Shown here piece after piece: positions 8,950 to 61,689 of a DNA stretch of 64,000 nucleotides. Origin of the DNA: a virus (Duplodnaviria > Caudoviricetes). The notes under the pieces were generated by a model, which saw only the letters and a list, made by a program, of their open reading frames with translations, ran no database searches and was not told the origin of the DNA. The stretch spans positions 32,001 through 96,000 of the IMG/VR virus record IMGVR_UViG_3300021400_001310. One strand, written 5' to 3'. Each line of letters opens with the position of its first letter. The stretch's first letter is position 1. Both the position numbers and the translations under genes were made by a program.

Positions 8950-8964
8950 ACAGGGGGTGTTAAT

Positions 8965-31992: not shown

Positions 31993-32019
31993 TTAATACC
32001 TCCTAATTAAAAATTACTT

Positions 32020-45477: not shown

Positions 45478-45785
45478 ATCTGTGTCTTATAAAGGATATG
45501 CGGGAAAAACGGGGGGATCCGGATGCGTGCCCATACGATGGATATTAATATCCAGGGATGACGCCGCGATGCTATCTTCGGGGTGTTGTCTCACAACAAA
45601 AATTCAGTTGGACGATAAAAGCCGAATACGAGGCAGGGAAGGCTCAAAGTGTACTTGGAATACTTCGAGTCTGAAGCTGCAGATATCGCCTGAATATTAT
45701 TGCTGGTGTAGTCATCCTTTACCTCTCAAAATGTAACTTCTGCGAAACGCAAGAAGCATCACATAAGTGATAATTGCACACAGAT
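45478..45785 (-). ncRNA. Retron-like ncRNA unit D (remote copy)
   Basis: Conserved head CTCTCAAAATGTAACTTCTGCGAAACGCAAGAAGCA (+ strand); terminal IR ATCTGTGT 45478-85 / ACACAGAT 45778-85; unpaired G at 45777. Confidence 0.75.
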
Positions 45786-45804
45786 TATGCGTTATAAATT
45801 ATTT

Positions 45805-45832
45805 TGAGACAGGATAAAAAAATCCTGTCTCA
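45805..45832 (-). terminator. Hairpin between the SPFH gene and ncRNA unit D
   Basis: TGAGACAGGAT-A6-ATCCTGTCTCA perfect 11-bp IR. Confidence 0.6.
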
Positions 45833-45836
45833 TTAT

Positions 45837-46709
45837 TTATTTACTCGACGAATTGCCGATATCTGTTATGACCGAGCCATTACTCATAACATTCGGCAGC
45901 TTTCCGTCCCATTTTTCATAGAATCTGGATTCTAAAACCTTTTCTGTGAGTGAATCCTGGATTATCTTATTAGCTTTCGCCTGAGCTTCGGCTTCCACAA
46001 TCTTTGCCTTTGCATTTGCTTCTGCCGTCGCCACTTTTGTATCGTTAGTATAATCAGCTTTAAGCTTATCCTGTTCGGCTATCATTTTATCTTCTACTGC
46101 TTTCTCAAAAGCATCAGAGAAGTCGATGTTTGTGAGTGTAACAGACGAGATGTTAATATAAAAGCGCTCGTCTATTGCTTTGCGCATTGCTTCCTCAATC
46201 TCAGCCGAAAGTTCTCCTCTTTTTGCAATAATATCCATTGCTTTATTTCTCGACATAACTGTTTTTGCCTGTGCCACAGCTATTTTTTCAACCTTGCTCT
46301 CTAAAGCGCTGAGTCTTCCGTATTCTGTAGCAATATCAGTTACTTTATCCTGAGAAATTGTATACTGGATTGTTAAAAACAGATCCATTGTTTGAGCGTC
46401 GCTTGAATAAGCCATTGTTTCGATATCTAAATTCTGAACCTTAGTATCATATTTTTGATATTTTCTTAAAAACCATAGATCAAAATTCAATCCTGCACTT
46501 TTTACATCTACAACCTTGCCAAATTGTTTTACGACAGCAACCTCGCCTGTGTTAATAGAATGGAAGCTGAGCGGAACAATTAATAAAGAAACAACTAATG
46601 CAGCTAATGTTATCCAATACCAAGCTTTTACATCTTTATTCTGATTCAAAAATATTAGTGTAGCTATACCAGCGACAATTAGAATTCCAGTTAATAATCC
46701 TATAATCAT
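45837..46709 (-). CDS. SPFH/prohibitin (band 7) membrane protein
   Basis: TM helices, GEVAVV..FGK, F..AVE.K..AEQ, EKWDGKLP. Confidence 0.9.
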   Translation of the reverse strand: MIIGLLTGILIVAGIATLIFLNQNKDVKAWYWITLAALVVSLLIVPLSFHSINTGEVAVVKQFGKVVDVKSAGLNFDLWFLRKYQKYDTKVQNLDIETMAYSSDAQTMDLFLTIQYTISQDKVTDIATEYGRLSALESKVEKIAVAQAKTVMSRNKAMDIIAKRGELSAEIEEAMRKAIDERFYINISSVTLTNIDFSDAFEKAVEDKMIAEQDKLKADYTNDTKVATAEANAKAKIVEAEAQAKANKIIQDSLTEKVLESRFYEKWDGKLPNVMSNGSVITDIGNSSSK

Positions 46710-47030
46710 TTTATCTTCCTTTATTTCAAATATTATAGTGCGTTTTTGTCGCCTTCAGACATAGTTGGTGATCGGTTCAACGCACAAACCGGACGCATTG
46801 CTGGTCGATTTCCCACCCAACAGAGAAATCGTTTTAGCCTATAATAACGATCTCCGTTTGTCCTGAGAGTAATGTACACTCTTCTCATTCAAAAACGGAG
46901 ATTAAAAGAACTATGGGAACGACAGGTTGTCGCTTCCATTACAAGAAATTCTTATTTCTTTATTATCAAAAATCCATTAGGCTTCAAGCGCTGATTTACT
47001 ATGTAAACTGAAGCGTAACAGAAACATTTT

Positions 47031-47125
47031 GGTTATTTGGCAGGCGTGTCATCTCCTGCATCTCTCGGTTTCCCTGTCATGCCATCGGCGTGTGGTCGAC
47101 ACGAAATTTACCACCTCAAATAACC
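47031..47125 (-). ncRNA. Structured RNA element with kissing-loop potential
   Basis: GGTTATTTG/CAAATAACC closing stem; two hairpins with complementary loops CGTGTC/GACACG. Confidence 0.5.
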
Positions 47126-47321
47126 ACGTCTAAAAAAAGCTCCAGACCTCGGCACATCCCCTATAATCGGGAGGTCTACTATCTGGAACTATGATTAACT
47201 TGATACGGTTTCTAAACGCTCGCCGAAGAACTGTGCCGTATCTAATTGCATACATGTCGCAGTAGTATTGCAATTAATCTTCGGTTTTTATTATGTTTGC
47301 TGCGACAAAACATAATGCGAT

Positions 47322-47397
47322 TGGTGCTCCAATTCGGATTTGAACCGAAACTAACTTGCTCCTAAAACAAGTGCCTCTGCCGTTGGGCTATTGGAGC
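47322..47397 (-). tRNA. tRNA-Leu(TAG), short variable region
   Basis: Cloverleaf, loop TTTAGGA, GTTCAAATC T-arm, encoded CCA. Confidence 0.8.
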
Positions 47398-47401
47398 AAA
47401 A

Positions 47402-47920
47402 TCAAAAATCTTCAATAGACTTTCCAATAGCTCCTAAATTCTCTTCGATAACCTTAATTTTAATATCGTTATAAGCGTCAATATAATCGTCGTTGTCGGA
47501 GAGAGTAGCAAATATATCCTCACCCATTTCTTTAAGTTTTTCGTCTGAAAATGGGCAAGTCTGATTAAACTCCTCAAAGTATGATTTGATATCATTGGCA
47601 GCAAACCTGTTTCTCATTTTTAAAAATATCTGTTCTGATTCCACATCTGTTAATTGTATTGACTTGCCGTTTCTAATTATTGATATTCCATAATCCATAC
47701 ACTAATTTTTCTCCATAAAATAATAATAAAGAACCCGTATTCTTGGTCGTTCTTTAGGTTTAAAGTCTTGATTAACAAAACTTTCAAGTGCATCCATACC
47801 TTCTCGTTCATATATTCCAAGACAGGTATAATACAAAGAATCAAGAGACTGAGGAGAAGAATCGCCACCAAAAGCCAAATGCTTCTCTGTATATTTAGCT
47901 AAAGCTTCATTAAAGTCCAT
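47402..47920 (-). CDS. Two hypothetical proteins (47402-47698, 47702-47920)
   Basis: ORFs with RBS. Confidence 0.5.
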
Positions 47921-47972
47921 TTAACAATCCTCCATGATAAGGTCTTCTATTTCAAAAATAGTCTTACACTCC

Positions 47973-48431
47973 TTATCGTTGGTATATAACAACATTGCAA
48001 TCTGTTAACTCATCTTCAATCATTTTGCAGACCACATTCCAATCTCCGCCGCCTCTATCACATCCCATATGAAACGGTATAGCCACACTATAACCAGCCC
48101 ATTGCTTGTTCACGATTTTAAGACAATTCCTTAATGCATCATAGTCGGTATATCGTTTTCCATCGTATCCAAACTTGTCTTGAGAAAACAAATTAATAAT
48201 TGCACGATTTTCTTCATTGTCAATATATACTGTCTGAATACTACCCAGTAATCCCGGTTTAAGATGTGGATCGTCGCACCACATCTTATAATATTTGTAT
48301 ACTATAGGATATTTTTGTTTGACCTGCTTTGCTATTCCGCTTCCCATTACACCCTGACAATTAACCTGATGTAAAATTACATTCGCATTACTATCAAAGA
48401 TATCACCTTTTATATATTTCATCTTGATCAT
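47973..48431 (-). CDS. Macro-domain (ADP-ribose processing) protein
   Basis: KGDIF, HQVNCQGVMGSGIA, MGCDRGGGDW. Confidence 0.9.
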   Translation of the reverse strand: MIKMKYIKGDIFDSNANVILHQVNCQGVMGSGIAKQVKQKYPIVYKYYKMWCDDPHLKPGLLGSIQTVYIDNEENRAIINLFSQDKFGYDGKRYTDYDALRNCLKIVNKQWAGYSVAIPFHMGCDRGGGDWNVVCKMIEDELTDCNVVIYQR

Positions 48432-48765
48432 CCTTTTCTTTTATTAAATATGAGACAGAAACCTCAATTTCAAATTTAATATCGTCCCACGTATCAGGAA
48501 GATCACTTCCTAACCAGTCGGAATAAAATAGGTCTAAAAGATTTATCGATTCTGACAATAGCAGCTCAGTAGTTCGATCTGTAAAATCTATGTATCCTGA
48601 ATTAAACATTTGAGTTACAATATCCTTATAAACTATTTCATACGCCGAATTAACTATTTCTTCTGGCGTTTTACGTTTAATTTTGTTTAGGAAAAGATTG
48701 TGTTCAGATTCAATCCTATTAACTAATTTTTTAAAAATAAGGTTATTTGATATATCATTTGACAT
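48403..48765 (-). CDS. DUF3848-like protein
   Basis: PEEI...AYEIV.K.I pattern. Confidence 0.5.
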   Translation of the reverse strand: MSNDISNNLIFKKLVNRIESEHNLFLNKIKRKTPEEIVNSAYEIVYKDIVTQMFNSGYIDFTDRTTELLLSESINLLDLFYSDWLGSDLPDTWDDIKFEIEVSVSYLIKEKDDQDEIYKR

Positions 48766-48780
48766 AATAACACTCCTCGT

Positions 48781-49077
48781 TTAATTATCTTCCAGATGAT
48801 TAATTAACTTTTTGAATTCATCAAAATCTTTTTTGGATAATATAATATCGCAATACAGATAATCTTTATTTTTCAAAACAAACCATATCCTTTTGATTTT
48901 TTCTTTGAGAGTATGCCATTTTTTGTTTTGTTTATTATAAAAATCACCACTCGTTATCGATAAAAGAAGATACCAATCTTCATCATCTTTATCAAATCGA
49001 AATCTTATTCCTTCACAGCAACCACATTTACAATCAACGATAAAATCTTTTTTATCTTCACTTGTCATTACAGACAT
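48781..49077 (-). CDS. Hypothetical protein
   Basis: CKCGC motif, in operon. Confidence 0.5.
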   Translation of the reverse strand: MSVMTSEDKKDFIVDCKCGCCEGIRFRFDKDDEDWYLLLSITSGDFYNKQNKKWHTLKEKIKRIWFVLKNKDYLYCDIILSKKDFDEFKKLINHLEDN

Positions 49078-49089
49078 GCTAATTCTCCC

Positions 49090-49521
49090 TTAAACCAAAA
49101 GATAATTTATAATATACCTTGCAGCATCTTCCAAAGTATTCTCTTGGTGAAAAATCCCAAGTGAAACCCATGGATGGTTGATGTTGGGCTGCCCAACGCC
49201 AACCACAAAAATATTTTTATTACAAATTCTATTTATTGATTCGATTATTCCGAGTTCGATGTGGGTTCCAATACTGTCGGCTATTGTTGTTAAATCAACG
49301 ATTACAATATCACTATTAATGAGTTGATTAATTTCCCAGTTTCTCGATTCTATATCGTTATTTAAATCATTTTCTTTATACTGATAGAACAAAGGCGGAT
49401 GGATAAATATTATTTTTTTATCTGTTCCCGAAGTGATTAATTTTTCAATCTCTGATCTCCACCTCATCTGCTCCTTTAAATCAAGACCGCCCATCTTTCC
49501 GGAAGTAAATATCTTAAACAT
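49090..49521 (-). CDS. Nucleoside 2-deoxyribosyltransferase-like protein
   Basis: IFTSGKM, WR, SDIVIVDL, SIGTHIELG. Confidence 0.7.
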   Translation of the reverse strand: MFKIFTSGKMGGLDLKEQMRWRSEIEKLITSGTDKKIIFIHPPLFYQYKENDLNNDIESRNWEINQLINSDIVIVDLTTIADSIGTHIELGIIESINRICNKNIFVVGVGQPNINHPWVSLGIFHQENTLEDAARYIINYLLV

Positions 49522-50074
49522 TTTCGCACCTTATCGTTTCCAATGTCTGAGGACTCCAGTCCATATACGGAATCATCACTCCGACATTATACATGTTGCA
49601 AGGTTTATCATATAAATCTTCTGACATTTTTTTAAAATACTTCATCATATTCCACTCATATGTATTGTGAACATGACCGTATAGATGAAATGCTCCATAG
49701 TAATGGTTTTTAAAACAAGTAATCGGATAGTGGCACAAGACTATTAAATCATCTTTGCTACCCAATTCTTTATAGTCTACTACCTCATTAAAACACTTGC
49801 GAAAATCAGGATTTTTCACATACCTTGAATCATGATTTCCGATAATTAAATGTTTGTTTCCATTTAAAGACTCCATTATTTGTATGGTTTTCGTGACATT
49901 ATGCCAAGATACATCACCTAAAATATATACTTCGTCTTTATAACCTACCTGGTCGTTCCAATTTTCAATTAATGCATTATCGTGATCTTCTATATTAAGC
50001 CACGGGCGGTTATCGTATCCTAAAACATTCTTATGACCAAAATGCAAGTCAGATATAAAAAATGTTTCTCCCAT
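49514..50074 (-). CDS. Metallophosphoesterase
   Basis: SDLHFGH, LGD, GNHD, HYP, GHVH. Confidence 0.9.
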   Translation of the reverse strand: MGETFFISDLHFGHKNVLGYDNRPWLNIEDHDNALIENWNDQVGYKDEVYILGDVSWHNVTKTIQIMESLNGNKHLIIGNHDSRYVKNPDFRKCFNEVVDYKELGSKDDLIVLCHYPITCFKNHYYGAFHLYGHVHNTYEWNMMKYFKKMSEDLYDKPCNMYNVGVMIPYMDWSPQTLETIRCENV

Positions 50075-50100
50075 TAAATACCTCCTCTTATTGATTTTAT

Positions 50101-50180
50101 TGGAGCTTCAGGCGAGACTCGAACTCGCAACCTGATGCTTACGACAAGCACCTGCTCTACCTATTGAGCTTTACTGAAGC
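50101..50180 (-). tRNA. Atypical tRNA-Thr-like gene (9-nt anticodon loop)
   Basis: Paralogue of 51331-51406; loop TTGTCGTAA; 2 extra nt after the acceptor stem; CCA present. Confidence 0.6.
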
Positions 50181-50630
50181 ATATTGATATGATTCCCTCG
50201 CAAGGACGCTCATATCAGGCGCAAGTATACTTTTAGAATTTACTCCCTCTTCACAGTCGTCGACTTGCCTAATCGCGTACTGCCTTATCATATCCTTTAT
50301 TAAACGAGTGGAGTGGTAAGGAACCGCCTCTCGTTGTTCTTTGGGCTTCAGTCGGGTTATGAGTATACTCACTTACCAACAAAACTTACAAGTCGTTTTT
50401 AGACGATTGTCATGTAATAAAAAGCCTTAGCCCAATGACTTTTTTATTTGAACAGCGTATGGTACTCCTTCCTCATACAGGACAACTCCGTTGTATTATT
50501 AAGGCTCCAACGGAAGAGCAAGGTATGGCTGTTCTTCATGCCTTTAACTTATTGTGGAACATTAAACACACTCCATAAACTAACACCTCATGCTTTTTAT
50601 AAAACAATATATGAAATATAGATTGAATCA

Positions 50631-50915
50631 TTATTCAGATTCTATCTTTGCTCCACACTTGGGGCAAAATTCACAATCCCAGTAGAATTCAATGATACCC
50701 GGATTTAGTGTGGAAATCTGATAAGGTCTTGTTTTTCTACAATTACTGCATACTAATAAACCAGAGATTTTATTTTTAATCCATTTTGCGTTTTTGACAG
50801 GAGCTACCTCGATTAGTCTATCACAATCACGAAATTCTTCTTCTATATCTTCTATTCTATCTGCATATTCATAGCTACAACCTATGCAGTGGAATCCTTT
50901 TTCGCAAATAAACAT
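50631..50915 (-). CDS. Zn-ribbon hypothetical protein
   Basis: CSNC...FCPKCGAK; AGGAG RBS before MFICE. Confidence 0.6.
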   Translation of the reverse strand: MFICEKGFHCIGCSYEYADRIEDIEEEFRDCDRLIEVAPVKNAKWIKNKISGLLVCSNCRKTRPYQISTLNPGIIEFYWDCEFCPKCGAKIESE

Positions 50916-51330
50916 TGTTTTTTCTCCTTCTGTTTTTTTTATGTAGTTATTGTTTTTTTGGTGAAAAATCTTTAATGTTCCGGCGATACGCCCCGCGAGC
51001 ATTATCGCACGATCCCTATCCCAACTTACGGCATGGGTCTCCGATTTGAATGTTTTCTTTCAGGTTAAACCCTATTCAAGTTGCGGTTATCATACAACCC
51101 ATACAAGGCTCAATAACAAACTGCGACTTGAAACAGCTCGTTACTTCAACGCCACACGAACAGTCTTGTGAATGTGATTAATAGCATTTGTGGAAATCTT
51201 GCAGGAGGTGCTCTGCCTGTTCGCTTCCAACTTTTTCACAGATGGTACGCATTGTTAAGAGGCGTCTGTGCATCTGGTATTGGGTACGAAGGACAGCTTT
51301 CCTAACCAGCCCCTTGTACTTCGGGGATGT

Positions 51331-51406
51331 TGGAGCTTCTGGACAGACTTGAACTGTCAACCTGATGCTTACAAGGCAACTGCTCTGCCAATTGAGCTAC
51401 AGAAGC
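51331..51406 (-). tRNA. tRNA-Thr(TGT)
   Basis: Cloverleaf, loop CTTGTAA, CCA. Confidence 0.9.
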
Positions 51407-51474
51407 ATAGATTATAGACTTCCAATTATAATATTTTTAAACAATTTTACCGCTCTTATATTGAGTTTAACTCA

Positions 51475-51600
51475 AATAATTAGGTAGGATTTGAACCTAC
51501 TTTTACCGTCTGCTGCTCATTCAACATTTCGGCTCTTGGTTATCGGTATCAATGAGTTTTCCTATACCTTAGCGTTCTTCCCCTTGAACTACTAATTATT
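51475..51600 (-). ncRNA. tRNA-like RNA with expanded central domain
   Basis: Acceptor-like stem, GTTC/GAAC D arm, GTAGG-TTCAAAT-CCTAC T arm; ~70 nt insert; no CCA. Confidence 0.5.
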
Positions 51601-51735
51601 CAAGCTTTTTAAAAATGACAGTTCTTGGCGAACTTATCTGATGTAGAACTGTTAAGATTATCCAGATACCAATTACGTTGTTAAGTATCATAATCCCGAA
51701 TAGCATAAGTTACGTTTTCCTATTACTAACGGCGC

Positions 51736-51823
51736 TGGTGGGTAGGGTTGGACTTGAACCAACAATGTCCCGTAGGAGCCAGATTTACAGTCTGGTGCAA
51801 TACCAATTATGCTCTACCTACCC
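51736..51823 (-). tRNA. tRNA-Tyr(GTA)
   Basis: CCAGA-CTGTAAA-TCTGG anticodon arm, long variable arm, CCA. Confidence 0.9.
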
Positions 51824-51977
51824 ATATAATTAAGGGTTTTCCTTCAGTTATAATTAACCTATCCAGTTTGCGGGTAACCCATAACCCTATAAAACTCCAT
51901 TAAAAACTGCTTTCTGGAACAACTTTTAATATCAACGTCACACTGACAATCTTGTTGCCAGCAACCTTTAAAGGTTT

Positions 51978-52070
51978 TGGTGGGAATAGTGGGATTTGAA
52001 CCCACATCAAAGGCGTTTCGTCGCATATACCCTTTCAAAGCGAAAAGCTTTACCATTAAGCTATATTCCC
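51978..52070 (-). tRNA. Atypical tRNA-like gene, anticodon unassignable
   Basis: Perfect acceptor GGGAATA/TATTCCC-ACCA, D and T arms; no canonical anticodon arm. Confidence 0.55.
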
Positions 52071-52330
52071 ATAAATTGCGTGTTTTTGTTGCCTAATGGC
52101 GTAGTCGGAAACAGGCTCAACACGCAAACCCTTTCAGAGCCTCCACACTTACTGTTCCGACGGAGCAATGTGCTTCAATGGCATTTGCCTGTGAATAGCT
52201 TCTTTAGTCTATAGCGACATCACCAGGCTATGGAGAAATTAGCCTCACTATGAGTCTCCTTACTCTTCTTTTGCGCAGTGGTAAGAGTACAACCACTTGC
52301 TGTTTATCTTGTCCGTTGGATAATCAGCGT

Positions 52331-52405
52331 TGGCAGGGATAGCTGGATTCGAACCAGCGGATAATGGAGTCAAAGTCCATTGCCTTACCGCTTGGCTATA
52401 CCCCC
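52331..52405 (-). tRNA. tRNA-Gln(TTG)
   Basis: ATGGA-CTTTGAC-TCCAT, GTTCGAATC T-arm, CCA. Confidence 0.92.
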
Positions 52406-52632
52406 ATGTAAGCAACTGGCTGTTCCTCAAACTCCATTTACCTTTTTCTTGATAGGACTTACCCGTTTCCTTTTCAAATTAGACGTGGTTGTACATTTGC
52501 CATTTCCATCAAGCACCAGTTGTTTTATTATTACTTATAATTCGGGAGCTTCTCCTGTGCTCATCACAAATCACCTCAATGGGTCATTGTTTTTAACATC
52601 TATTTTCAAATCTTTAACATCTTTATATTAAT

Positions 52633-53037
52633 TTACCACCATAGATCATAAAAGTATTTTGAAAAAAGTTCAAAGAATCTTTCTTTATCTTCGACACCCT
52701 TTTTCTCAACTAATTTCGTTTGTTCGATATCATACTTATATGTTTTATTTTTTTTATCGTATATAATACATTCATCGGTGCGCTTGTCTATGTCCATACC
52801 GTCCAGACACTCAATCATTTCAGACAGAATATATCTCCAATCTTCGATACTTCGACATTCATTATCCTTTGGATACGAGCAAGTTTTATCTCTGAACTCT
52901 GTTAACATATGCCTCATTATGTCGATAAACCAATAATCAATATCCCATAAGTCGTAGTTTGAATACCCTTTTATAAACCTTTGACATCTTCTTATGAATT
53001 TATCGAATTTATCTTCGATTCTATATTTAAGTTTCAT
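52633..53037 (-). CDS. Hypothetical protein
   Basis: DLW..D, W..IL.EMI, F.LF.KYF..LW conserved phage pattern. Confidence 0.6.
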   Translation of the reverse strand: MKLKYRIEDKFDKFIRRCQRFIKGYSNYDLWDIDYWFIDIMRHMLTEFRDKTCSYPKDNECRSIEDWRYILSEMIECLDGMDIDKRTDECIIYDKKNKTYKYDIEQTKLVEKKGVEDKERFFELFSKYFYDLWW

Positions 53038-53831
53038 AATTCAGCTCTTATCTCCCCGGGGTATTTATAATAAGGCATCGGCTGTAACTTAAATTTGTTC
53101 TTTTTATGAAGGTAATCGATGCGCTCTTTGATTGATTCGTCATCGCATACCCCTTCTCGAATATAACGATTTAATACAGCATATGAAAACCCTAAATTTT
53201 CTTCATCTGTTTTCCCACAAAGTCCGTCGGATGGTGTCTTATGAGTTAAATATTCTGGAAGACCGCAGGCATCGCCTACTGCAATAACTTCGTCAGTTGT
53301 CAGCATAGACAGCGGACTAAAGTCACCAACACTATCTCCGTATCTGGTTGAATACCCAACCCAATCTTCTGAAAGATTACAAGTGTTTGCAACCCTACCA
53401 TTAACGCTCTGTGAAACAGCATATAATGTTGCCATTCTTATTCTCGCCGGTAGATTAATTATTGTCTGTTCGGAAGGGTTAAAAATTTCCTCCAGTTTAT
53501 CCATAATATCTATAAAGGGATCTCTGATATCAATAGTGTAACTTTGGATATCAAGGATAGACAATAATAATTCGGAGTCTTTTATTGAATCATCGTCGTT
53601 ACAATCCTTATATATGGTATCGTCAGTATTTGGCATCAATACACCAATAACTCTGTCCTTTCCAAGAGCTTCTGCGCACAATGCGGCGACAACTGAGCTA
53701 TCCTTTCCGCCTGAAATACCAACGACAGCATTACAATCAGAACCTATCTCTTCGAAAGTCTTCCTAATCCACTTAACTATTTCATTCTTAACTTCTATAG
53801 CGTTGAAGTTAGATGCCGATTCATTTTTCAT
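53034..53831 (-). CDS. nadE: NH3-dependent NAD+ synthetase
   Basis: GISGGKDS, N..ARIRM..LY, GYSTRYGD, K.PSDGL. Confidence 0.92.
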   Translation of the reverse strand: MKNESASNFNAIEVKNEIVKWIRKTFEEIGSDCNAVVGISGGKDSSVVAALCAEALGKDRVIGVLMPNTDDTIYKDCNDDDSIKDSELLLSILDIQSYTIDIRDPFIDIMDKLEEIFNPSEQTIINLPARIRMATLYAVSQSVNGRVANTCNLSEDWVGYSTRYGDSVGDFSPLSMLTTDEVIAVGDACGLPEYLTHKTPSDGLCGKTDEENLGFSYAVLNRYIREGVCDDESIKERIDYLHKKNKFKLQPMPYYKYPGEIRAEL

Positions 53832-55300
53832 CAGAAATTACCTCCGTGTAATACTTTTCTTATATCACTCAAGCTTTGTTCACGGAGTAGTTCTCCATCT
53901 TTAAATACAGGCTCCAGTAAGTTACAATCATTACAAGCTTCATCCCATGTAAGTTCATCTTTATAAACTAATTTATTATCATAAAAATAAACCGAACAGC
54001 ATCCCTTTTGTGACTTTTTAAATCCGCCATCTTTGGGATTCTTAAATATAGGCACAGGCTTACCGTTAATCTCACAATATGTAGCTTTAATGCAAGAACT
54101 AAACGTGTCTCTTGTAAACGGCTTAAGAACGCCATCTTCTTCTATGCACTGGAAAGAAAAAGAACCAACACCAAGAGCTACGTTTGAACAGGCGAACCCA
54201 TTATCTGCTAAGATTTTATATATTTCCTCGCATCTTTGTATTGTGATTGAGTCGCCATAAATCGCCTTAACGTGTGGATCGAGAACCTTATATCCTTTAC
54301 TGTTAATTGTGCCACCAAACTCATCCCAAAGCTTGAAGACGGTCTTTGTTACAACATCAACACAATCTCCTGAGTCTCCTCTCATAAGCATGCATCCGTT
54401 ATGAGCCATGATTTCATCTTTAATCTGAGGAAGAACATTATCAATTATATTCCAGTAATCATAGGAATCCAGCACCGCTGAAAAACTTGTGTTAGGATAT
54501 ATCTCCGTAAGGAGCCTCTTCAATAATGTGATTTCGTCCCCGTCAACTGCGAAATTAGAACACATAACGGAATGTTCTGTGCTGGGACTTCCGAACGCAA
54601 CCGGTTCTTTCGTACAGTCACAGTTATACATATTTTCTAAATAGGGAATTGTCGGGACGGTAGCGGTGTTTAAGAATGATAAACACCAACCAGCTCCGGC
54701 TTTGATAGCGGATTCTGTGCACTCTTCTCCTCTGAAATCAAACGCTCCCAGAGCCTTGGCTCTGGGTATATTATCGTCGCATGTTAAATCATAATACTTA
54801 TTTACTATCTGACGATAGGTATACCCTACCGTGGCTGCAATCATGGGATGCCAGCTCTCTGCTGATATCAGGCTTTCAAGTGACTGAGGTAGCCACGCAA
54901 AATCAGGATGTGTATTTGTAATACCAAACATCGGGACATGCATAGGTACGATTGTCCCTTCGGGTAAAGCGACTATTTCAATAGGAAGATATCCCAATTT
55001 ATGAAGTTCGATTATCTTTTTTATACCATATACATCTTCTCCGAGAGTTGCATCCATTACTCTTTTATATTCAAACATTACATCTAAAAATGGCTTGTTA
55101 AAAAACTCATTATTAAAGTAATCAATAAGATATGTTTTTATGAATGCCTGAAGCCCAAACATAACAACGTTATCCCATCTCTTTACTCTACTCATTCGTG
55201 GCGTAAAGTATGAAACTGATTTATTAATGCCTTTAGGAAGCATCTCTGCATGTACTGATTTATAGAAATCAATTAGTAACATAGGGTTGATTTTGTTCAT
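53831..55300 (-). CDS. Nampt-like phosphoribosyltransferase (Namat-like candidate)
   Basis: DFYK..H, DFRG, STEHSVM, DSYD, RGDSGD, YGDSIT, GVGS, KKSQKG. Confidence 0.88.
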   Translation of the reverse strand: MNKINPMLLIDFYKSVHAEMLPKGINKSVSYFTPRMSRVKRWDNVVMFGLQAFIKTYLIDYFNNEFFNKPFLDVMFEYKRVMDATLGEDVYGIKKIIELHKLGYLPIEIVALPEGTIVPMHVPMFGITNTHPDFAWLPQSLESLISAESWHPMIAATVGYTYRQIVNKYYDLTCDDNIPRAKALGAFDFRGEECTESAIKAGAGWCLSFLNTATVPTIPYLENMYNCDCTKEPVAFGSPSTEHSVMCSNFAVDGDEITLLKRLLTEIYPNTSFSAVLDSYDYWNIIDNVLPQIKDEIMAHNGCMLMRGDSGDCVDVVTKTVFKLWDEFGGTINSKGYKVLDPHVKAIYGDSITIQRCEEIYKILADNGFACSNVALGVGSFSFQCIEEDGVLKPFTRDTFSSCIKATYCEINGKPVPIFKNPKDGGFKKSQKGCCSVYFYDNKLVYKDELTWDEACNDCNLLEPVFKDGELLREQSLSDIRKVLHGGNF

Positions 55301-55343
55301 TTATAATCTCCTTATATTGCTTTCACAAATTTATTCATTTCAT

Positions 55344-56165
55344 TTAGATATGACAGTCAACGATTGTGATTTCCCAATCATTTTGCTGTGCCTTTTTTAG
55401 AATTCTTTTCACTTTACTACGCCAAGCCTTAAAGTCCTCAGCGGTGGCGTGAGATATACCCCACCAACCCATTTGTCCGGGTTCTAACCATTCGCCTGAT
55501 GGCAAAAGCGCAGCATAGAATGTAAATCCAGAAACCCAAGCCGCATATTCTTCGGCATTTGCATATCGTTCGGTAAAGTATTCCCTCTTATACAAAATGA
55601 ATTCGAGAAGTTTTTTATCTTCTTCAGTAATAGGTTCTTGCCCCTCGATATACAACTGCCAAAATCTGATTGCGTTTTTGTATTTCTCTTCATTTCGGTA
55701 GTCAATATTAACATTACACATAGACGCTTCGTTTGTATAACTACCGTCTTTGAGCGGCACAATATCTGAAAATCTGCCGCCAATACAATACCAATCCCAC
55801 TTAGAATTAGGATTATAATTAGAAAATACAGAACCATCGGGTCTAATATTTTTCTTTGCGTAGTAACGGATGCCATCAAGGTAACAATCTTCGTCAGTCC
55901 AATGGAGTTTTTTTTGGAACTCTTTGGAGATATACTCGATATGAGCCTGATTATAAGAATGTTTTTCGATATACGCCTTTGGATCTTTTAAATATTCTGC
56001 ATAAACACCGTTTTTGTATGTTTCAATGTCACTGCGAACTTTTGCAATGATATCTGCCTTTGGTATGTGATGAGGTACAGGAAGATTCTCATCAAAAGGA
56101 GCGAGTAGTTCTTCAAGGTTTTTGCCGTCAGGATCAAGGAACACTGCAACAGCATAGTGACTCAT
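55344..56165 (-). CDS. Conserved phage hypothetical protein
   Basis: MSHY.V.V, YNPNSKWDWY.IGGR, VDCHI. Confidence 0.65.
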   Translation of the reverse strand: MSHYAVAVFLDPDGKNLEELLAPFDENLPVPHHIPKADIIAKVRSDIETYKNGVYAEYLKDPKAYIEKHSYNQAHIEYISKEFQKKLHWTDEDCYLDGIRYYAKKNIRPDGSVFSNYNPNSKWDWYCIGGRFSDIVPLKDGSYTNEASMCNVNIDYRNEEKYKNAIRFWQLYIEGQEPITEEDKKLLEFILYKREYFTERYANAEEYAAWVSGFTFYAALLPSGEWLEPGQMGWWGISHATAEDFKAWRSKVKRILKKAQQNDWEITIVDCHI

Positions 56166-56974
56166 GCAACTTCACCTCGCTTCAGAACTGTAATTTTTTC
56201 GTGCGCCAGAGTAAAGACGCTTCGAGTTGTGTAGATATGCTTAATCAAATTGGAATTGATAAGCTCACCTTTAAAGATTGTATTTTCACAGTGTGTAACG
56301 TATAAATATATATCATTAGCGCCAGCTTCTTTTAATGCCTTAGCTGAATAATAGAAAGTTCCACCCTTGCTGCAAATATCGTCTACTATAAGAATATCTT
56401 TTCCTTTTATAATCTCCGTATCTGCAACCATAATTCCTTCTATTTTACCGGTTCTCCAGTCTCTCTTTTTAATTCCGAAAGTGTATGGTCTATCTTTTGA
56501 AAGTTTCGACTCAGAGTATCGCTTCATTGCACCCTCATCTGGATAATATAGAACAACGTCAATATTTTCTTTTTCTAATAAAGACAATGCTTTGTGAGGA
56601 TAATAATCAATATCGGTAACAATTAAATTATTAATTAAAGCACAACTTACATTTGAATGTGGGTCTCTAACAAACACTTCCTCAAAGCCAAGAGAGTTAA
56701 TGAATTCTGCAAAATATTTAAGTGTAAAAATTTCGTCTGGATTTTTCACCCTATCCATCCTTGCGTTTGGTATATAAGGCATATATAAATGTATTTTATT
56801 ATTAGCGCTTCTTAGGTGCGAAGTAATATAGAATAAAACTGCCATTTCATAATCAGATTCATAATACCAAGAGATATTTGTTCGTGCGTTCCGTTCTACA
56901 TTAAGCCTGAGCGACATAGTTCCGTCTGGAAATGTATTATTATAGTTAATTACCTCTCCATTTACTTTTATCAT
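56162..56974 (-). CDS. PRPP-synthetase-like pyrophosphokinase (Adps-like candidate)
   Basis: FPDGT, MPYIPNARMDR, DPHS, PDEGA, VDDICSKGGTF. Confidence 0.88.
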   Translation of the reverse strand: MIKVNGEVINYNNTFPDGTMSLRLNVERNARTNISWYYESDYEMAVLFYITSHLRSANNKIHLYMPYIPNARMDRVKNPDEIFTLKYFAEFINSLGFEEVFVRDPHSNVSCALINNLIVTDIDYYPHKALSLLEKENIDVVLYYPDEGAMKRYSESKLSKDRPYTFGIKKRDWRTGKIEGIMVADTEIIKGKDILIVDDICSKGGTFYYSAKALKEAGANDIYLYVTHCENTIFKGELINSNLIKHIYTTRSVFTLAHEKITVLKRGEVA

Positions 56975-57240
56975 TTATGAGTCTCCTTTATACATCGTAT
57001 AGTATATTCGGGCATTCTTGACGCCCACCATTCATCAATCGCATTATCAAGTTCCAATTCATTAACATTATCATCTAATTCGTAGTTAGGCATTCGTTCT
57101 CCCCACCACTCAAGAGCCTGATCTAACGCTTCCGCTTCTGAGCTTGAAGTAATAATATAATATACTTCGTCCCAAAACTCCCCTATTCCAGCATAATATA
57201 CACGATCATAGAGTTCTACTTCAAAAATATAAAGTTCCAT
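56971..57240 (-). CDS. Hypothetical acidic protein
   Basis: ORF in operon. Confidence 0.5.
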   Translation of the reverse strand: MELYIFEVELYDRVYYAGIGEFWDEVYYIITSSSEAEALDQALEWWGERMPNYELDDNVNELELDNAIDEWWASRMPEYTIRCIKETHK

Positions 57241-57256
57241 TTTAATTCTTCTAAAA

Positions 57257-57796
57257 CTAATCTTCGTTAACTACGTTGATATGACAAGATTTCATAACGG
57301 CAAGCGCAGCTTTATGCTTATCAGGTGTTACACCTGCACAGCAACTTGCATCGACCGTAATATCTATCTGAGGATACATAGCTCTTATGATAAGCGCATT
57401 GGATACAACACATATATCTGTACATAACCCAACAATTTCAACCTCGTTAAGATGTCTTTCACCTATATTGTCTTCTTTATCGATTTTCACGTCCCAAGCA
57501 TCCCAACCAAAGGTAAACTTATCAATATGTTCACATTCGGGGATATCTATCTTGTCTGATATCTGCCAACCATCAGTACCACAAATACAATGCTTTACCG
57601 GCAGCATCTTTCCTTCATGTGTATCAAGATAGTTTTCATAGTGCGTATCCCTTGTAAATATAACTTCGTCGCCTCTGCTTACATACTCATCTATTTTCTG
57701 TTTTACACGAGGGACAATTTCTACAGCTTCCTTAGTTCCAAGTGTTCCATCAATAAAATCATTTTGCATATCAATAACTATTAGTGTTTTTCTCAT
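57257..57796 (-). CDS. pncA: Nicotinamidase / isochorismatase-family hydrolase
   Basis: IDMQNDF, D.H, HC..GT.G, K.TF, GLCTDICV. Confidence 0.8.
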   Translation of the reverse strand: MRKTLIVIDMQNDFIDGTLGTKEAVEIVPRVKQKIDEYVSRGDEVIFTRDTHYENYLDTHEGKMLPVKHCICGTDGWQISDKIDIPECEHIDKFTFGWDAWDVKIDKEDNIGERHLNEVEIVGLCTDICVVSNALIIRAMYPQIDITVDASCCAGVTPDKHKAALAVMKSCHINVVNED

Positions 57797-57807
57797 TACG
57801 CTCCTCC

Positions 57808-58134
57808 TTAATCAGTTGTACTATAGTAATAATCTAAATCCTCATTTTCTAAATTTTCACAGCACCAAAGGTCTAATTTAGCCCATAAGGTATTATATAA
57901 TGTTGCTAATTCCTTATTACTGTCAGCGTGTTCCCAAATTTTCCAATTCAAAACCATAACCAATTCAGTTATATATTCGACGTTATCTTTCCAACTTTCA
58001 AATGATCTGTTATATGTATCTCTGACTGCATCCGCACCAAATGAATCGGCAATGCTGAAATCCATATAGAATGTTGTTTTTGGTTTATACCCAGTTACTT
58101 TTTCAATATTCCAGTTTTTATACATATTATTCAC
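57808..58134 (-). CDS. Hypothetical protein
   Basis: TTFY.DFSIAD.FG conserved pattern. Confidence 0.6.
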   Translation of the reverse strand: MNNMYKNWNIEKVTGYKPKTTFYMDFSIADSFGADAVRDTYNRSFESWKDNVEYITELVMVLNWKIWEHADSNKELATLYNTLWAKLDLWCCENLENEDLDYYYSTTD

Positions 58135-58627
58135 ACTCTTTTCCCATGAAATATTCTGTAATCGGGGCTGAGACCCAACAGCTTAATTCACATGCGACTT
58201 CAACGGCTTTAGTCGGTGAGTTCCCGAAATATAAAGCTGCTAAAGCAAAATCCTCACCTGCTCCTATCGCAATATAATCAGTAATCTCGGTTACAAACAT
58301 TCTTTCTATAAGAAACAAATGACCTTTCACTGCAATCAAATAAGAATTTTCAATATGGCTTCCGGTGTAATCTTTTTTCCAAGAGGAGAACTCTACGATG
58401 AAATTAAGAACATCTTTTTCTGTTGGCGTCTCAGGCTTATGAGTTTGCGAAAAGCGGTACATCAGACTTGTTTCTTCCGCAATTCCCACGCCTCCGATTA
58501 TCATTTCGTTTATCGCTGAAAGCTTCGAGAAATCTAATTGTGGGTATTTTGTTGACCCCTTTACCGAAATTGAATCAGCAGCAATAACAATTTTATCCTT
58601 GTACACTTTCCCTGCCACTACACTCAT
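58127..58627 (-). CDS. Ntn-hydrolase, HslV/proteasome-beta-like peptidase
   Basis: M-S-VVAG, IVIAADS, K, AIGAG..FALAAL. Confidence 0.7.
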   Translation of the reverse strand: MSVVAGKVYKDKIVIAADSISVKGSTKYPQLDFSKLSAINEMIIGGVGIAEETSLMYRFSQTHKPETPTEKDVLNFIVEFSSWKKDYTGSHIENSYLIAVKGHLFLIERMFVTEITDYIAIGAGEDFALAALYFGNSPTKAVEVACELSCWVSAPITEYFMGKECE

Positions 58628-58854
58628 CACAAATCTCCTTTATAATACTGTTTTTAATAAATTCTATATTTCCGCTCGTTTGTGCTAATTGAATAGTATA
58701 ATGTATAATATTTTCTATCATACGATCCGTGTATGCACATTCATTGCCAAAATTATTTAAATAGTTTAAATACTGCTTACACTCATTAATTATTTTTTCT
58801 ATAAAATATTTTGGAACCACACTAAATTTCCTTTCTTTAATATCATTTCTGCAA

Positions 58855-59099
58855 AAATCCATATCTAATAATGGATTGCTGGGTTTAATTTTTACATGTG
58901 TCCGACAGGACATCCTTAAAAATTAAACTCTATAAATCCTGTTTACTTTGTTTCACTAATTTTGAAATATTACAAGTTAATATTTCAAAATTAATAAATA
59001 TTTAGTTTCTAACAAAGTGTCACTTCTGCGAAACGCAAGAAGCAGTTTAACGTATTCTTTATGTAAATTACCAAGTTAAACTAATCTGCATATGGATTT
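58855..59099 (-). ncRNA. Retron-like ncRNA unit C
   Basis: Head variant CACTTCTGCGAAACGCAAGAAGCAG; terminal IR AAATCCATAT 58855-64 / ATATGGATTT 59090-99; G at 59089; two long internal hairpins. Confidence 0.65.
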
Positions 59100-59104
59100 A
59101 TATC

Positions 59105-59401
59105 TTACCGATCTAATAAATATGTTACAGGGATAGTAGATCTATGAAGACGACGAGTCTGAAGGAGGAAGCCGGTCTTGCAGGCGTCCTGAAGACTTGG
59201 TGAACTGTTGCGAGACAACGCCGCTGGTATGGAACCAGGATGATGGAGGTGCATCGATTGATCAGTGTGAGATGAGGCGCTGCTCTGGATTATGGGCTGT
59301 ATTGGGGCGCAACCTACTGGGTGCCGTCGTCATTCTCTCAAAATGTAACTTCTGCGAAACGCGAGAAGCAGTTCAGAAATTTGAACTCATTGCATCGGTA
59401 A
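59105..59401 (-). ncRNA. Retron-like ncRNA unit B
   Basis: Head ~62 nt nearly identical to unit A; terminal IR TTACCGAT 59105-12 / ATCGGTAA 59394-401; G at 59393. Confidence 0.8.
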
Positions 59402-59444
59402 TAATAAGCCTTTACTTTTAGGTTAAAATATTATGTTTAATATT

Positions 59445-60596
59445 TTATTTCGTAAAATATGTAATATCGTTTTTAATCATATTTAGAACATTAACATTAT
59501 TTTTTTTGTTAATATGTTCGATTAATCGCATTATCCCCTTTTCTTCGACCATTGAATAATAGCTTCTTAACCCTTCCATATATTGAAGACGATCTAATTC
59601 GTAATTTTTACCAGCCTTTTTATCTCTGATATAGTTTGTAAGCATAGCTTCAAACTGTCTTTTCTTTTTATAGCCAATTGTTATTTCGTTATCTCTATTA
59701 AGCATAATTCCAAGATTCCAGTTTGAACCTGATGAAGAACCGTATCTCGTCTTTGAACAATTAATCTTAAATGGAGCGTTATATTTTTTCAGTACCTCGT
59801 TTATAATATTTTCAATTTCTTTATGGTTAAAATCGTATTTTGAAGAAATAAGAAAGTCGTCTGCGTATCTCGTATAAATATACTTTTGTTTGTTATAATC
59901 ATTTAATTTATTAGACAATTCAAAGTCAATCGGAATCATCATAACGTTAGTAATTATTGGAGATATTGGCGTACCCTGTGGCAGCCCGCCATTTAAAAAG
60001 GCTAATTCTATAGCCTTTGTCAGTTCTTCTCTTCCCTCTGAATTTTTCATCACTTCGCTTAACGGAAATATTTTAGAGAACATTTCTAATACGAAATCTA
60101 ATGTAGTGCTTCCAAAAAAGTCAGATAAATCATATTTACCAAACCATTTGCTTTCATTTGCCTGATGCTTTTTAACAGCATCTATAGTGCTTCTATGCTT
60201 AATATAGGCAAATGCTGATGTATGATATAAAAGCCTGCAATCATTTTCCAAAATATGCTTTAAATGACGGAGGCTCGATTTTAATTCATCATTTGGAGCG
60301 TCAATTCTTCTAAACGATTTTCCACTCCTCTTCGGAATATAAAATGTATTGTATAAATCAGCTCTATTAGAAGCTCTGAGGTAATCAGTATGCTTATTAA
60401 ACAATTTAAGCTTGTTGATTATTTCGTCTACATCGACAGACGAAAGAAGTCGCTGACTTATATTTTCTACACAATATGTTTTTGTGTTTGACGTATTAGG
60501 GGTTATCATATATGATTTTGCGTTTTCATCATTTAAAAATTCTTCTAAAGAAATCTGGTGATATTTGGGTTTTTGAAAAACAGTAAAAAAATACAT
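59445..60596 (-). CDS. Retron-like reverse transcriptase
   Basis: IPKRSG..R.I.AP, AFAY, DAVKKH (region-X-like), YDLSDFF, LPQGTPISP, YTRYADD; WNLG in place of VTG. Confidence 0.92.
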   Translation of the reverse strand: MYFFTVFQKPKYHQISLEEFLNDENAKSYMITPNTSNTKTYCVENISQRLLSSVDVDEIINKLKLFNKHTDYLRASNRADLYNTFYIPKRSGKSFRRIDAPNDELKSSLRHLKHILENDCRLLYHTSAFAYIKHRSTIDAVKKHQANESKWFGKYDLSDFFGSTTLDFVLEMFSKIFPLSEVMKNSEGREELTKAIELAFLNGGLPQGTPISPIITNVMMIPIDFELSNKLNDYNKQKYIYTRYADDFLISSKYDFNHKEIENIINEVLKKYNAPFKINCSKTRYGSSSGSNWNLGIMLNRDNEITIGYKKKRQFEAMLTNYIRDKKAGKNYELDRLQYMEGLRSYYSMVEEKGIMRLIEHINKKNNVNVLNMIKNDITYFTK

Positions 60597-60610
60597 ATTA
60601 TTTCCTTTCT

Positions 60611-60955
60611 CTGTGATCTATTACATAATGATAATTATTAATTTTATCTATATAATTTTCTTTTGATGGAGGTGGCGTTGGTGATTTTTAATGGAGACAG
60701 CAGGAGTGATTGTTGTACAACCTTGATATGGATGCCAATTGCCTTCATTGGATTTGTTGGGGGACAACGTAGAAATTGGGGGTCAATCATGATCCTGCAT
60801 TAGCTTCAGCTTGGACTGCAAGTTCGATTAGATGGAAGCTTGGGTTGAGTTACCATCTTGATATGGACTATCCTTGGCTATTTCCTTACCTCTCAAAATG
60901 TAACTTCTGCGAAACGCAAGAAGCAGTTCAGAAATTTGAACTCATTGCATCACAG
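60611..60955 (-). ncRNA. Retron-like ncRNA unit A (immediately upstream of RT)
   Basis: Conserved head; terminal IR CTGTGAT 60611-17 / ATCACAG 60949-55; G at 60948; ends at the RT RBS. Confidence 0.8.
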
Positions 60956-61014: not shown

Positions 61015-61689
61015 TTAGAAACAGTCAAGAACGCCGTGAAATCCGTCCATCTGACAGAATTTCCAGATGCCGTTTCCTTTTACGAAATTCACAAAGTTAT
61101 TAACTCCTAATGCACAAATTAACCTTACGGTTGTGGCGACGCCAAGTGTGATACCACAGGCAGAAACAGGAGTTTCTGCAGAAGCTTCGTCATGTGTAAA
61201 TTGCATTGAGTTAAGCAGATTCTGTTTGCTCTTATAATCTTTCCAATCTGCTGCGTAATGCTGGGCAGAGGTAAGACCTGTTCTGAAATCAAATACTGCT
61301 TTTACGTTCATATTATTAAAATGTTTTTTTACAATTTCCTGACGAGTTTCAATAGAGTCAACGCAAAGGAACAGATAACCTGAAAGCATTTGTCCATTCC
61401 ATCCGTCTGGTTTAAGTTTAATAGTCTGTTTTACATCCGGGTTGATATCATATAGGATATCGAAAAGAGCCTCGACTTTGGGCTTGCCTATATCAGCTTC
61501 TCGGAACATCTGATTCGCAATATTGTGAGAGCATACCGTATCCATATCCCAGAGTACGATATTAGTAAGACCAAATCTCACAAGGTTTTCCGCAAGTGTA
61601 GAACCTACTGAGCCGCACCCGATTATATGTATAGTGCTATTAACCAAGCTTGGCTGAAAAAATTCATAAGACTTGTTTAAATCAATCAT
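61015..61689 (-). CDS. ThiF/E1-like adenylyltransferase
   Basis: IIGCGSVGS, DMDTV..HN..NQ, G.PKV, CVDS..R, SACG. Confidence 0.9.
   Translation of the reverse strand: MIDLNKSYEFFQPSLVNSTIHIIGCGSVGSTLAENLVRFGLTNIVLWDMDTVCSHNIANQMFREADIGKPKVEALFDILYDINPDVKQTIKLKPDGWNGQMLSGYLFLCVDSIETRQEIVKKHFNNMNVKAVFDFRTGLTSAQHYAADWKDYKSKQNLLNSMQFTHDEASAETPVSACGITLGVATTVRLICALGVNNFVNFVKGNGIWKFCQMDGFHGVLDCF

Follow-up and report, generated by a model that had tools for sequence, protein, structure and literature searches.

A retron-like locus in a large gut phage with one reverse transcriptase and four candidate template RNAs

Introduction

To our knowledge, the retrons studied up to now are all bacterial defence systems, in which one reverse transcriptase (RT) works with one RNA and a toxic partner. 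Could a phage put such an enzyme to use on several RNAs at once? The question is raised by a locus in a large gut phage (Duplodnaviria; Caudoviricetes; IMG/VR record IMGVR_UViG_3300021400_001310), where one retron-type RT gene is accompanied by four template-RNA-like units, all of them on the minus strand. Coordinates below refer to the window, that is, the whole 64-kb stretch analysed (positions 32,001 to 96,000 of the 104,556-base virus record). Our preferred reading, held with moderate confidence, takes the locus for a variant retron carried by a phage, with a single RT of the retron clade acting on four non-coding RNAs (ncRNAs) cognate to it; by analogy with known retrons, these would probably yield four long branched products of RNA and single-stranded DNA (ssDNA), one of them made in trans.

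Four units with a common architecture

The original prediction, made from the letters of the window, had described four units (A-D), and on re-reading the minus strand we found their coordinates and shared order of parts to be as given there. In each, a 5' arm (a1) is followed by an unpaired G, a short linker, hairpin 1 and hairpin 2, and then by the motif TKACAYTTTG, 180-290 nt of unrelated cargo, the dinucleotide AG and a complementary 3' arm (a2). A covariance model was built on the 5' scaffold of the units (the scores below are its scores), whereas the coordinates of the hairpin 1 sub-features were read by hand from the sequence.

Unit A (60611-60955, 345 nt; 65 bits, E = 2e-10) lies directly upstream of the RT gene. 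Its arms, CTGTGAT/ATCACAG, occupy 60949-60955 (a1) and 60611-60617 (a2), with the unpaired G at 60948, hairpin 1 at 60925-60942, hairpin 2 at 60904-60923, the post-hairpin-2 motif TTACATTTTG at 60894-60903, a mini-hairpin within the cargo at 60756-60768, and TAG preceding a2. The ribosome-binding site and ATG of the RT gene come after a2, the ATG being 14 nt from its end. Unit B (59105-59401, 297 nt; 64.3 bits) is the first unit 3' of the RT gene, with arms TTACCGAT/ATCGGTAA (a1 59394-59401, a2 59105-59112), G at 59393, hairpin 1 at 59370-59387, hairpin 2 at 59349-59368 and a mini-hairpin at 59207-59219. Only 5 nt further on begins unit C (58855-59099, 245 nt; 48 bits, E = 3.7e-7), with arms AAATCCATAT/ATATGGATTT (a1 59090-59099, a2 58855-58864), G at 59089, a long hairpin 1 at 59044-59082 and hairpin 2 at 59023-59042; its 3' end is overlapped by a listed open reading frame (ORF) at 58593-58913. 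Unit D (45478-45785, 308 nt; 58.9 bits) stands 13.7 kb downstream of the RT gene, between an SPFH gene and an operon of an 84-amino-acid ORF and an RNA ligase. Its arms are ATCTGTGT/ACACAGAT (a1 45778-45785, a2 45478-45485), with G at 45777, hairpin 1 at 45758-45771, hairpin 2 at 45737-45756, a mini-hairpin at 45585-45597, and AAG before a2.

The arms differ in sequence from unit to unit and nonetheless form a perfect helix of 7-10 bp in each, and the G after the 5' arm faces the G of the AG before a2 in all four, both as originally predicted; the arm helix also closes the minimum-free-energy fold of every unit. Hairpin 1 has the stem AGTTCA/TGAACT in A and B, AGTTTAAC/GTTAAACT in C and ATCAC/GTGAT in D, while hairpin 2 is near-invariant (CTTCTYGCGTTTCGCAGAAG). 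With up to three mismatches allowed, this 20-mer occurs at only four sites in the 104,556-base record, all on one strand, and a reversed control pattern occurs nowhere in it. Run on the window, the covariance model recovered A-D at E values from 2e-10 to 4e-7, the next match falling at E = 0.97. Over 62 nt (60890-60951 vs. 59335-59396) A and B share 98% of their scaffold positions and have the same hairpin 1, a likeness which, given their differing arms and cargos, suggests recent duplication or gene conversion. No Rfam family matched the units at gathering or lenient thresholds, and the locus had no DNA match in a collection of cultured phages. In the four sequencing runs compared with the locus, contigs break at the repeated scaffolds.

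A divergent reverse transcriptase of the retron clade

The RT gene (59445-60596, minus) encodes 383 amino acids, matches Pfam RVT_1 at 3.1e-22 and is the sole RVT_1 match in the record. The earlier assignment of the enzyme to the retron type was borne out by PADLOC, NCBIfam and PDB comparisons, in each of which retron RTs led. The top 25 PADLOC models were all retron RTs (best RT_II-A, 9.5e-47); the best NCBIfam model was retron_St85_RT at 182.6 bits, under its curated cutoff of 235, the Drt2 hidden Markov model reaching only 45.6 bits; and the closest PDB structures were the Ec83, Ec78 and St85 RTs, Ec83 scoring 3.7e-28 vs. 7e-10 for a group II intron RT. The protein aligns with classical retron RTs over its full length, C-terminal region included. 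Its YADD box is intact (TRYADDFLISS), LPQGTP is also present, and residues A245, D246 and D247 vary little or not at all among 12 homologues. Two retron motifs are altered, VTG reading NLG and NAXXH reading AVKKH; in the HMMER alignment the NAKIH of Ec83 stands opposite AVKRH (AVKKH in the window RT), and of the two motifs only the H and the G are retained. The N-terminus has some 55-65 residues more than that of the Ec83 RT. Because retron models and structures give the best matches while the motifs are altered and the N-terminus is extended, the enzyme is, judged by its sequence, a divergent branch of retron RTs.

Layout and pairing in related phages

Relatives of the RT were found in 20 IMG/VR contigs (43-61% identity), with another 53 in metagenome-assembled genomes from guts, most of them assigned to Clostridia bins. 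A large protein collection gave 4,918 RT matches at E ≤ 1e-10, other retron RTs counted in; the top matches among those listed were close relatives of about 380 amino acids on phage-sized contigs of up to 190 kb. The original prediction had proposed a search of related phages for arrays beside homologous RTs, and the covariance model, searched in the RT-bearing loci, recovered 110 units in 69 related loci, every one of the 110 on the RT strand. Relatives carry three to six units and, like the window, have one directly upstream of the RT gene on the same strand. Five whole records (G001-G005) repeat the complete layout with four to five units each: one upstream of the RT gene, two in tandem downstream and one distal, the last lying 6-13 kb further downstream. 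Distal units at the position equivalent to D were also found in two metagenome-assembled genomes (G006 and G008). Since five related records and two metagenome-assembled genomes repeat it, the array with its distal unit is, as far as sequence comparison goes, a conserved feature rather than a peculiarity of one genome.

Pairing within the units is conserved across this family. For hairpin 2, 99.2% of 927 alignment cells are paired, in an alignment fitted to the model and thus favouring pairing, with compensatory changes in eight of the nine pairs; none of 500 shuffles scored as high, and slid controls were 35-51% paired. Hairpin 1, whose covariation had been noted among the four units, was found in every one of 96 representative units, among which its stem takes 84 different sequences. 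Arm pairing in homologous loci was one of the points on which the original prediction had said it could fail, and it is conserved: among 111 distinct units, with 53 different 7-nt arms, positions 1-7 are paired in at least 94%, and on average 7.7 of 8 positions pair vs. 5.1 of 8 with shuffled partners, values inflated by the choice of a2 as the best partner. Two features that played no part in choosing a2 agree, namely a G opposite the G in 88% of these units (chance 25%) and AG before a2 in 70% (chance 6%).

Within the present phage the four scaffolds, the distal D included, share an identity of 0.91, vs. 0.66 with those of other phages. All four also carry lineage-specific variants: their inner stem is GCGTTTCGC, and they read ACAYTTTG at the place of the ACAACTTG of relatives. 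These shared variants would fit one RT serving all four units, or else gene conversion.

The cargo drifts while its frame is kept

The cargos are rich in A and C and poor in T, and a purine-rich tract follows the TTGA motif directly. Apart from that of unit C, which is AT-rich and holds two strong hairpins (fold z of -6.9), they are weakly structured, with fold z from -2.9 to +1.3 and a mean of about -0.9, and the long stable hairpin of the classical retron template region (msd) was not found in them. A helix closing the two cargo ends was not significant family-wide (median p of 0.34). The mini-hairpin GTTG-N5-CAAC occurs exactly three times in the window, once each in cargos A, B and D (0.48 expected), and a looser form in 28 of 96 family cargos vs. 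7 expected, mid-cargo and about 106 nt before a2; pairing around it is modestly above expectation (21 pairs vs. 15, mean z of -1.3). Because this pairing is modest and the closing helix not significant, the template is at best a badly degenerated classical msd hairpin.

Neither a source nor a coding capacity for the cargos was found where we looked: the record holds no second copy of any cargo, one relative's cargo has no match in its own metagenome-assembled genome, and cargo B has chance-level matches only in 399 sampled Clostridia genomes. Among 105 units, the longest ORFs on both strands equal those of composition-matched shuffles, and no period-3 codon signal was found in the cargos. This absence of excess open frames and of a period-3 signal speaks against a DRT2-like gene encoded by the complementary DNA (cDNA).

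Between close relatives the scaffold differs by 0-3%, the cargo by 5-24% and the 4-fold degenerate sites of the RT gene by 12-32%. The idea that cargo evolves faster than neutral gave inconsistent results, at 21-29% vs. 11.7% for 4-fold sites in one pair and 7-24% vs. 31.5% in another. Cargo substitutions are mainly transitions, of all kinds, plus transversions, and are not adenine-specific. Conservation is seen in short islands at the cargo start, the mini-hairpin and the last ~40 nt; most of the cargo appears to drift at about the neutral or synonymous rate, with length, composition and landmarks kept. The four cargos of the present phage share 8-mers no more than by chance (6 vs. 4.2 expected), although two shared 11-mers stand out. 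Across unrelated cargos of 96 family units, the 6-mers CTTCAG/CTGAAG, CTCATC and CTCCAG are over-represented 4-5 fold, CTTCAG/CTGAAG being found in 19-21 of the 96 cargo clusters vs. 4-5 expected, and GGCGCC occurs 14 times vs. 4.2 expected. The over-represented words are neither avoided in the phage genome nor tied to palindromes.

An operon of ubiquitin-system-like genes upstream

The original prediction had seen no obvious toxic effector. That still holds, with the qualification that most relatives have directly upstream of the RT gene an operon of a ubiquitin-like (Ubl) candidate, an E2-like candidate, a JAMM-type protease and an E1-like enzyme. Its last gene, ending ~60 nt before unit A, encodes a ThiF/E1-like adenylyltransferase (61015-61689, minus; 224 amino acids; Pfam ThiF 2.7e-21, PADLOC E1-E2 ~1e-16). 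Before it comes a JAMM/JAB-type metalloprotease (61686-62564, minus; 292 amino acids), so assigned by its motif and a Prok-JAB lead from an atlas; the protein has no Pfam match, and its JAMM motif E69...H130-S-H132-x7-S140-xx-D143 is invariant in 31 homologues. Next is a tentative E2-like candidate (62557-64000, minus, with its start beyond the window end; full protein 499 amino acids), made up of a MoaB-like N-terminal domain, a long coiled coil and a UBC/RWD-like C-terminal domain with a conserved P405-N406-x-H408...C414-x-G416. The atlas gave this protein a lead to Prok-E2_D at a score of 0.83; comparison of the C-terminal domain with RWD/UBC-like folds gave Z of 6.1-6.9 (VIA-align), which is within the noise range, and no Pfam, PADLOC or Foldseek match was found. 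The family numbers 1,329 representatives at E ≤ 0.001 and is without a Pfam family. Just upstream of the E2-like gene, beyond the window, is a 76-amino-acid ORF ending in KMDNAA (genome 96230-96460, minus).

An E1 gene lies upstream of the RT gene in 65 of 73 related loci, and a JAB gene in 55 of the 73, down to RT identities of 37-43%; genes downstream of the arrays are not conserved among these loci. This suggests, on gene order and sequence, that the RT with its units and the upstream operon form a conserved module. We know of no retron in which E1, JAMM or E2-like proteins serve as effectors, and no PADLOC effector model was matched by the E1, JAB or E2-like proteins, nor by two further proteins of the window. 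One of the two is an HslV/proteasome-beta-like peptidase (58127-58630, minus; phrog_1040, 9.6e-20) just 3' of unit C, a position not conserved in relatives. The other is a 143-amino-acid protein (49090-49521, minus) with a weak match to nucleoside 2-deoxyribosyltransferase (NDT; phrog_1817, 1.9e-4), whose gene lies 10 kb from that of the RT and which matched no PADLOC model; NDT is the effector type of type II-A retrons.

Proposed mechanism

Of the proposal that this is a multiplexed retron-like system, the architecture, the RT clade, the layout and the shared scaffold stand, while the products themselves are projected from retron biology. Under the preferred reading, each RNA would close through its own a1/a2 arms, leaving the G next to a1 unpaired, and its two hairpins, resembling those of a retron msr, would be the shared handle recognised by the RT. 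The RT would bind this handle and prime from the 2'-OH of the unpaired G, copying from the AG beside a2 towards the purine-rich tract just 3' of hairpin 2. One product would thus come from the RT leader, two from the tandem pair, and one, in trans, from the locus 13.7 kb away. Most of the template can change freely, and from this we infer that the products, as abundant ssDNA or RNA-DNA species, would work largely without regard to their sequence. As to their purpose, we lean ever so slightly to counter-defence or takeover over phage-borne defence. A broader picture, which we put forward tentatively and with well under even confidence, is that the gut-phage retron family and the ubiquitin-like operon are one system, in which at least four private templates would flood the infected cell with long, unstructured ssDNA of arbitrary sequence: a counter-defence or takeover device and a natural 'multitron', copying templates of 200-280 nt in cis and in trans.

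Several observations weigh against this reading. Transcription, priming, cDNA extent and branching are all carried over from retron biology, and no sigma-70-type promoters were found before the units. The NCBIfam score falls under the curated cutoff, VTG and NAXXH are altered in the RT, and the cargos are without the long msd hairpin. The over-represented 6-mers suggest some sequence-specific constraint that the model leaves unexplained. Gene order shared within a single phage lineage could by itself account for the link to the Ubl operon. Finally, the tyrosine recombinases of these phages make lysogeny plausible, and a defence role therefore equally so.

Alternative explanations

The alternative that survives best, and that we regard as possible though clearly not the favourite, is an anti-phage defence retron borne by a phage or prophage, with the multicopy ssDNAs (msDNAs) serving as parallel sensors or antitoxins against competing phages and the Ubl module or an unrecognised protein as effector. 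According to published work, the retrons characterised to date are all defence systems; msd sequences vary widely between known retrons; and two to three tyrosine recombinases were found per phage, with two of the records having a provirus classification. In its order of genes (Ubl, E2-like, JAB, E1) the neighbouring operon resembles bacterial Bil/ISG15-like defence operons. Yet no recognisable toxin lies beside the RT gene, the JAB and E2-like proteins are without a PADLOC defence match, and the remainder of the region holds counter-defence-type genes. The cargo, moreover, is unstructured and drifts near-neutrally, whereas the known effector-binding msDNAs are structured.

The units might instead be mainly cis-acting 5' leaders, in which reverse transcription, RNase H cleavage or the fold itself controls the operon downstream (the RT gene, the genes after C, the RNA ligase operon), an account we find doubtful. 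A Shine-Dalgarno sequence and start codon do follow a2 by 5-20 nt in this phage and in relatives, but in a compact phage genome any intergenic element would end up beside the next ribosome-binding site, and what follows B is unit C, not a gene. Likewise the purine-rich cargo start resembles a ribosome-binding site, AAGGAAATA occurring both in cargo A and in the ribosome-binding site of the RT gene, but pairing between the post-hairpin-2 segment and the 3' cargo is not significant across the family. A type VI retron is reported to derepress translation by means of its RT-DNA (10.1101/2025.10.22.683967), a precedent for leader control; in the present family, however, no conserved genes follow the arrays.

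The remaining explanations are all unlikely. That only A works as a retron ncRNA, with B, C and D being duplicated relics or non-autonomous hitch-hikers of no use to the phage, would accord with the 98% identity of the A and B scaffolds over 62 nt (suggesting recent duplication or gene conversion), with the near-neutral drift of cargo and with a unit number varying from three to six between relatives. Relics would, however, lose arm pairing, and here strong purifying and compensatory selection acts on the scaffold and arms of every unit, with the positional set and its position-specific hairpin-1 sequences kept where RT identity is only 55-60%; we hold this account to be quite improbable.

Less probable again is a restriction decoy, in which the cargos, as 'natural polylinkers', would yield RT-DNA that decoys host restriction-modification enzymes. 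The cargos have an excess of some type IIS-like words and GC-rich palindromes (CTGAAG/CTTCAG ~4-5 fold, GGCGCC 14 vs. 4.2), and several 6-bp palindromes are strongly avoided in the phage genome. As a class, however, 6-bp palindromes are not enriched in the cargos (z of 1.2) and 4-bp palindromes are depleted, words wholly avoided by the genome are also absent from its own cargos, and CTGAAG/CTTCAG is not avoided in the genome (59 vs. ~61 expected); ssDNA, besides, is a poor substrate for most restriction enzymes. The decoy idea is thus weakly contradicted by the unenriched palindromes, the absent avoided words and the unavoided CTGAAG.

Action of the cDNA by base-pairing, as a donor resembling those of diversity-generating retroelements (DGRs) or of recombineering, or as antisense to host or phage RNA, is the least probable of all: DGR RTs are the commonest phage RTs (PMC13681634) and the cargos are variable, but no cargo match exists elsewhere in the 104.5-kb record or, for one relative, in its own genome bin, cargo B matches 399 Clostridia genomes at chance level only, the substitution spectrum is ordinary and not adenine-specific, and the RT falls outside the DGR clade.

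Relation to known systems

In RT clade the locus belongs with Retron-Eco4/Ec83, Eco7/Ec78 (type I-A) and St85/Sen2 (type II-A), and it shares with classical retrons the a1/a2 inverted repeats, the unpaired G by a1, the msr hairpins and an ncRNA directly upstream of the RT gene. It differs from them in having at least four ncRNAs to one RT, including a distant one; in its templates of 180-290 nt, weakly structured and without a stable msd hairpin; in the altered VTG and NAXXH motifs and N-terminal extension of an RT carried by large gut phages; and in the absence of a PtuAB- or NDT-type effector, the conserved neighbour being the Ubl/E2-like/JAMM/E1 operon.

Multitrons (10.1101/2023.07.17.549397) are man-made from Retron-Eco1, its msds being arrayed and its msr provided in trans. 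The present locus resembles them in its several candidate templates per RT, in tandem arraying and in a template placed away from the RT gene, where multitron templates can also work; unlike theirs, each unit here is a complete natural cassette of msr and template with private arms. Type VI retrons (10.1101/2025.10.22.683967) are likewise non-canonical and offer a possible analogy to a leader role, their RT-DNA being proposed to regulate translation rather than to act as an antitoxin scaffold; they differ in being bacterial, with another RT type, a single ncRNA and a toxin/HTH pair. Phage DGRs also combine a phage RT with a non-coding template, but their RT belongs to another clade, and the locus has neither a pair of template and variable repeats nor adenine-specific changes, just as the a1/a2 and branch-G architecture forms no part of DGRs. 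The test for a DGR gave a negative result: the record holds no near-identical second copy of any cargo, and substitutions between relatives show no adenine bias. A survey (PMC13681634) notes retron-like RTs from uncultured viruses, most of them of animal-gut origin, and speculates that host defence may be interfered with; it covers RT proteins only, and no ncRNAs, arrays or Ubl operon. In full-text searches of the literature we found no description of natural multi-ncRNA retrons or of phage retron arrays.

Set against the retrons studied so far is a large and abundant gut-phage family with one retron RT, several private templates, a distal template, no classical toxin and a conserved ubiquitin-like operon. 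If the products are made, retron biology would reach the phage side of the conflict, and natural retron RTs would be seen to use several templates, also in trans. Genome editing would in that case gain a scaffold tolerating long unstructured templates together with natural arraying, which current editing tools reach only through heavy engineering.

Genome neighbourhood

The region around the locus contains NAD-salvage enzymes, six tRNAs, drum and skipping-rope RNAs, an RNA ligase and phosphatases, genes of the kind with which phages take over their host and counter its defences. The nicotinamide adenine dinucleotide (NAD)-salvage cluster (53034-56974, minus) comprises a phosphoribosyl-pyrophosphate-synthetase-like gene (56162-56974), a nicotinamide phosphoribosyltransferase (53831-55300) and an NAD synthetase (53034-53831), and resembles phage NAD-reconstitution counter-defence pathways.

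The RNA ligase downstream of unit D has PHA02142 OB-fold and RNA_ligase domains, and in one relative (G002) the distal unit likewise stands directly before an RNA ligase. Together with a phosphatase and a phosphoesterase nearby, the ligase makes a possible tRNA-repair set (43942-45114, 47973-48431 and 49514-50074, all minus).

Three tyrosine-recombinase (Phage_integrase) genes are present, at ~17167-17727 of the window (minus) and at genome positions 1739-2278 and 8546-9082; relatives have two to three each, and these phages may be temperate or plasmid-like. The palindromes GAGCTC, CAGCTG, AGTACT, GGTACC, CGATCG and CGTACG are completely absent from the 104.5-kb record, which is a strong restriction-avoidance signature.

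Drum and skipping-rope are orphan structured-RNA families. Two drum RNAs (51045-51154 and 51829-51940, minus; 93.5 and 89.6 bits) lie between the RT locus and unit D, as does a skipping-rope RNA (47032-47124, minus; 59.3 bits), and the six tRNA genes are spread around them at 47325-52405.

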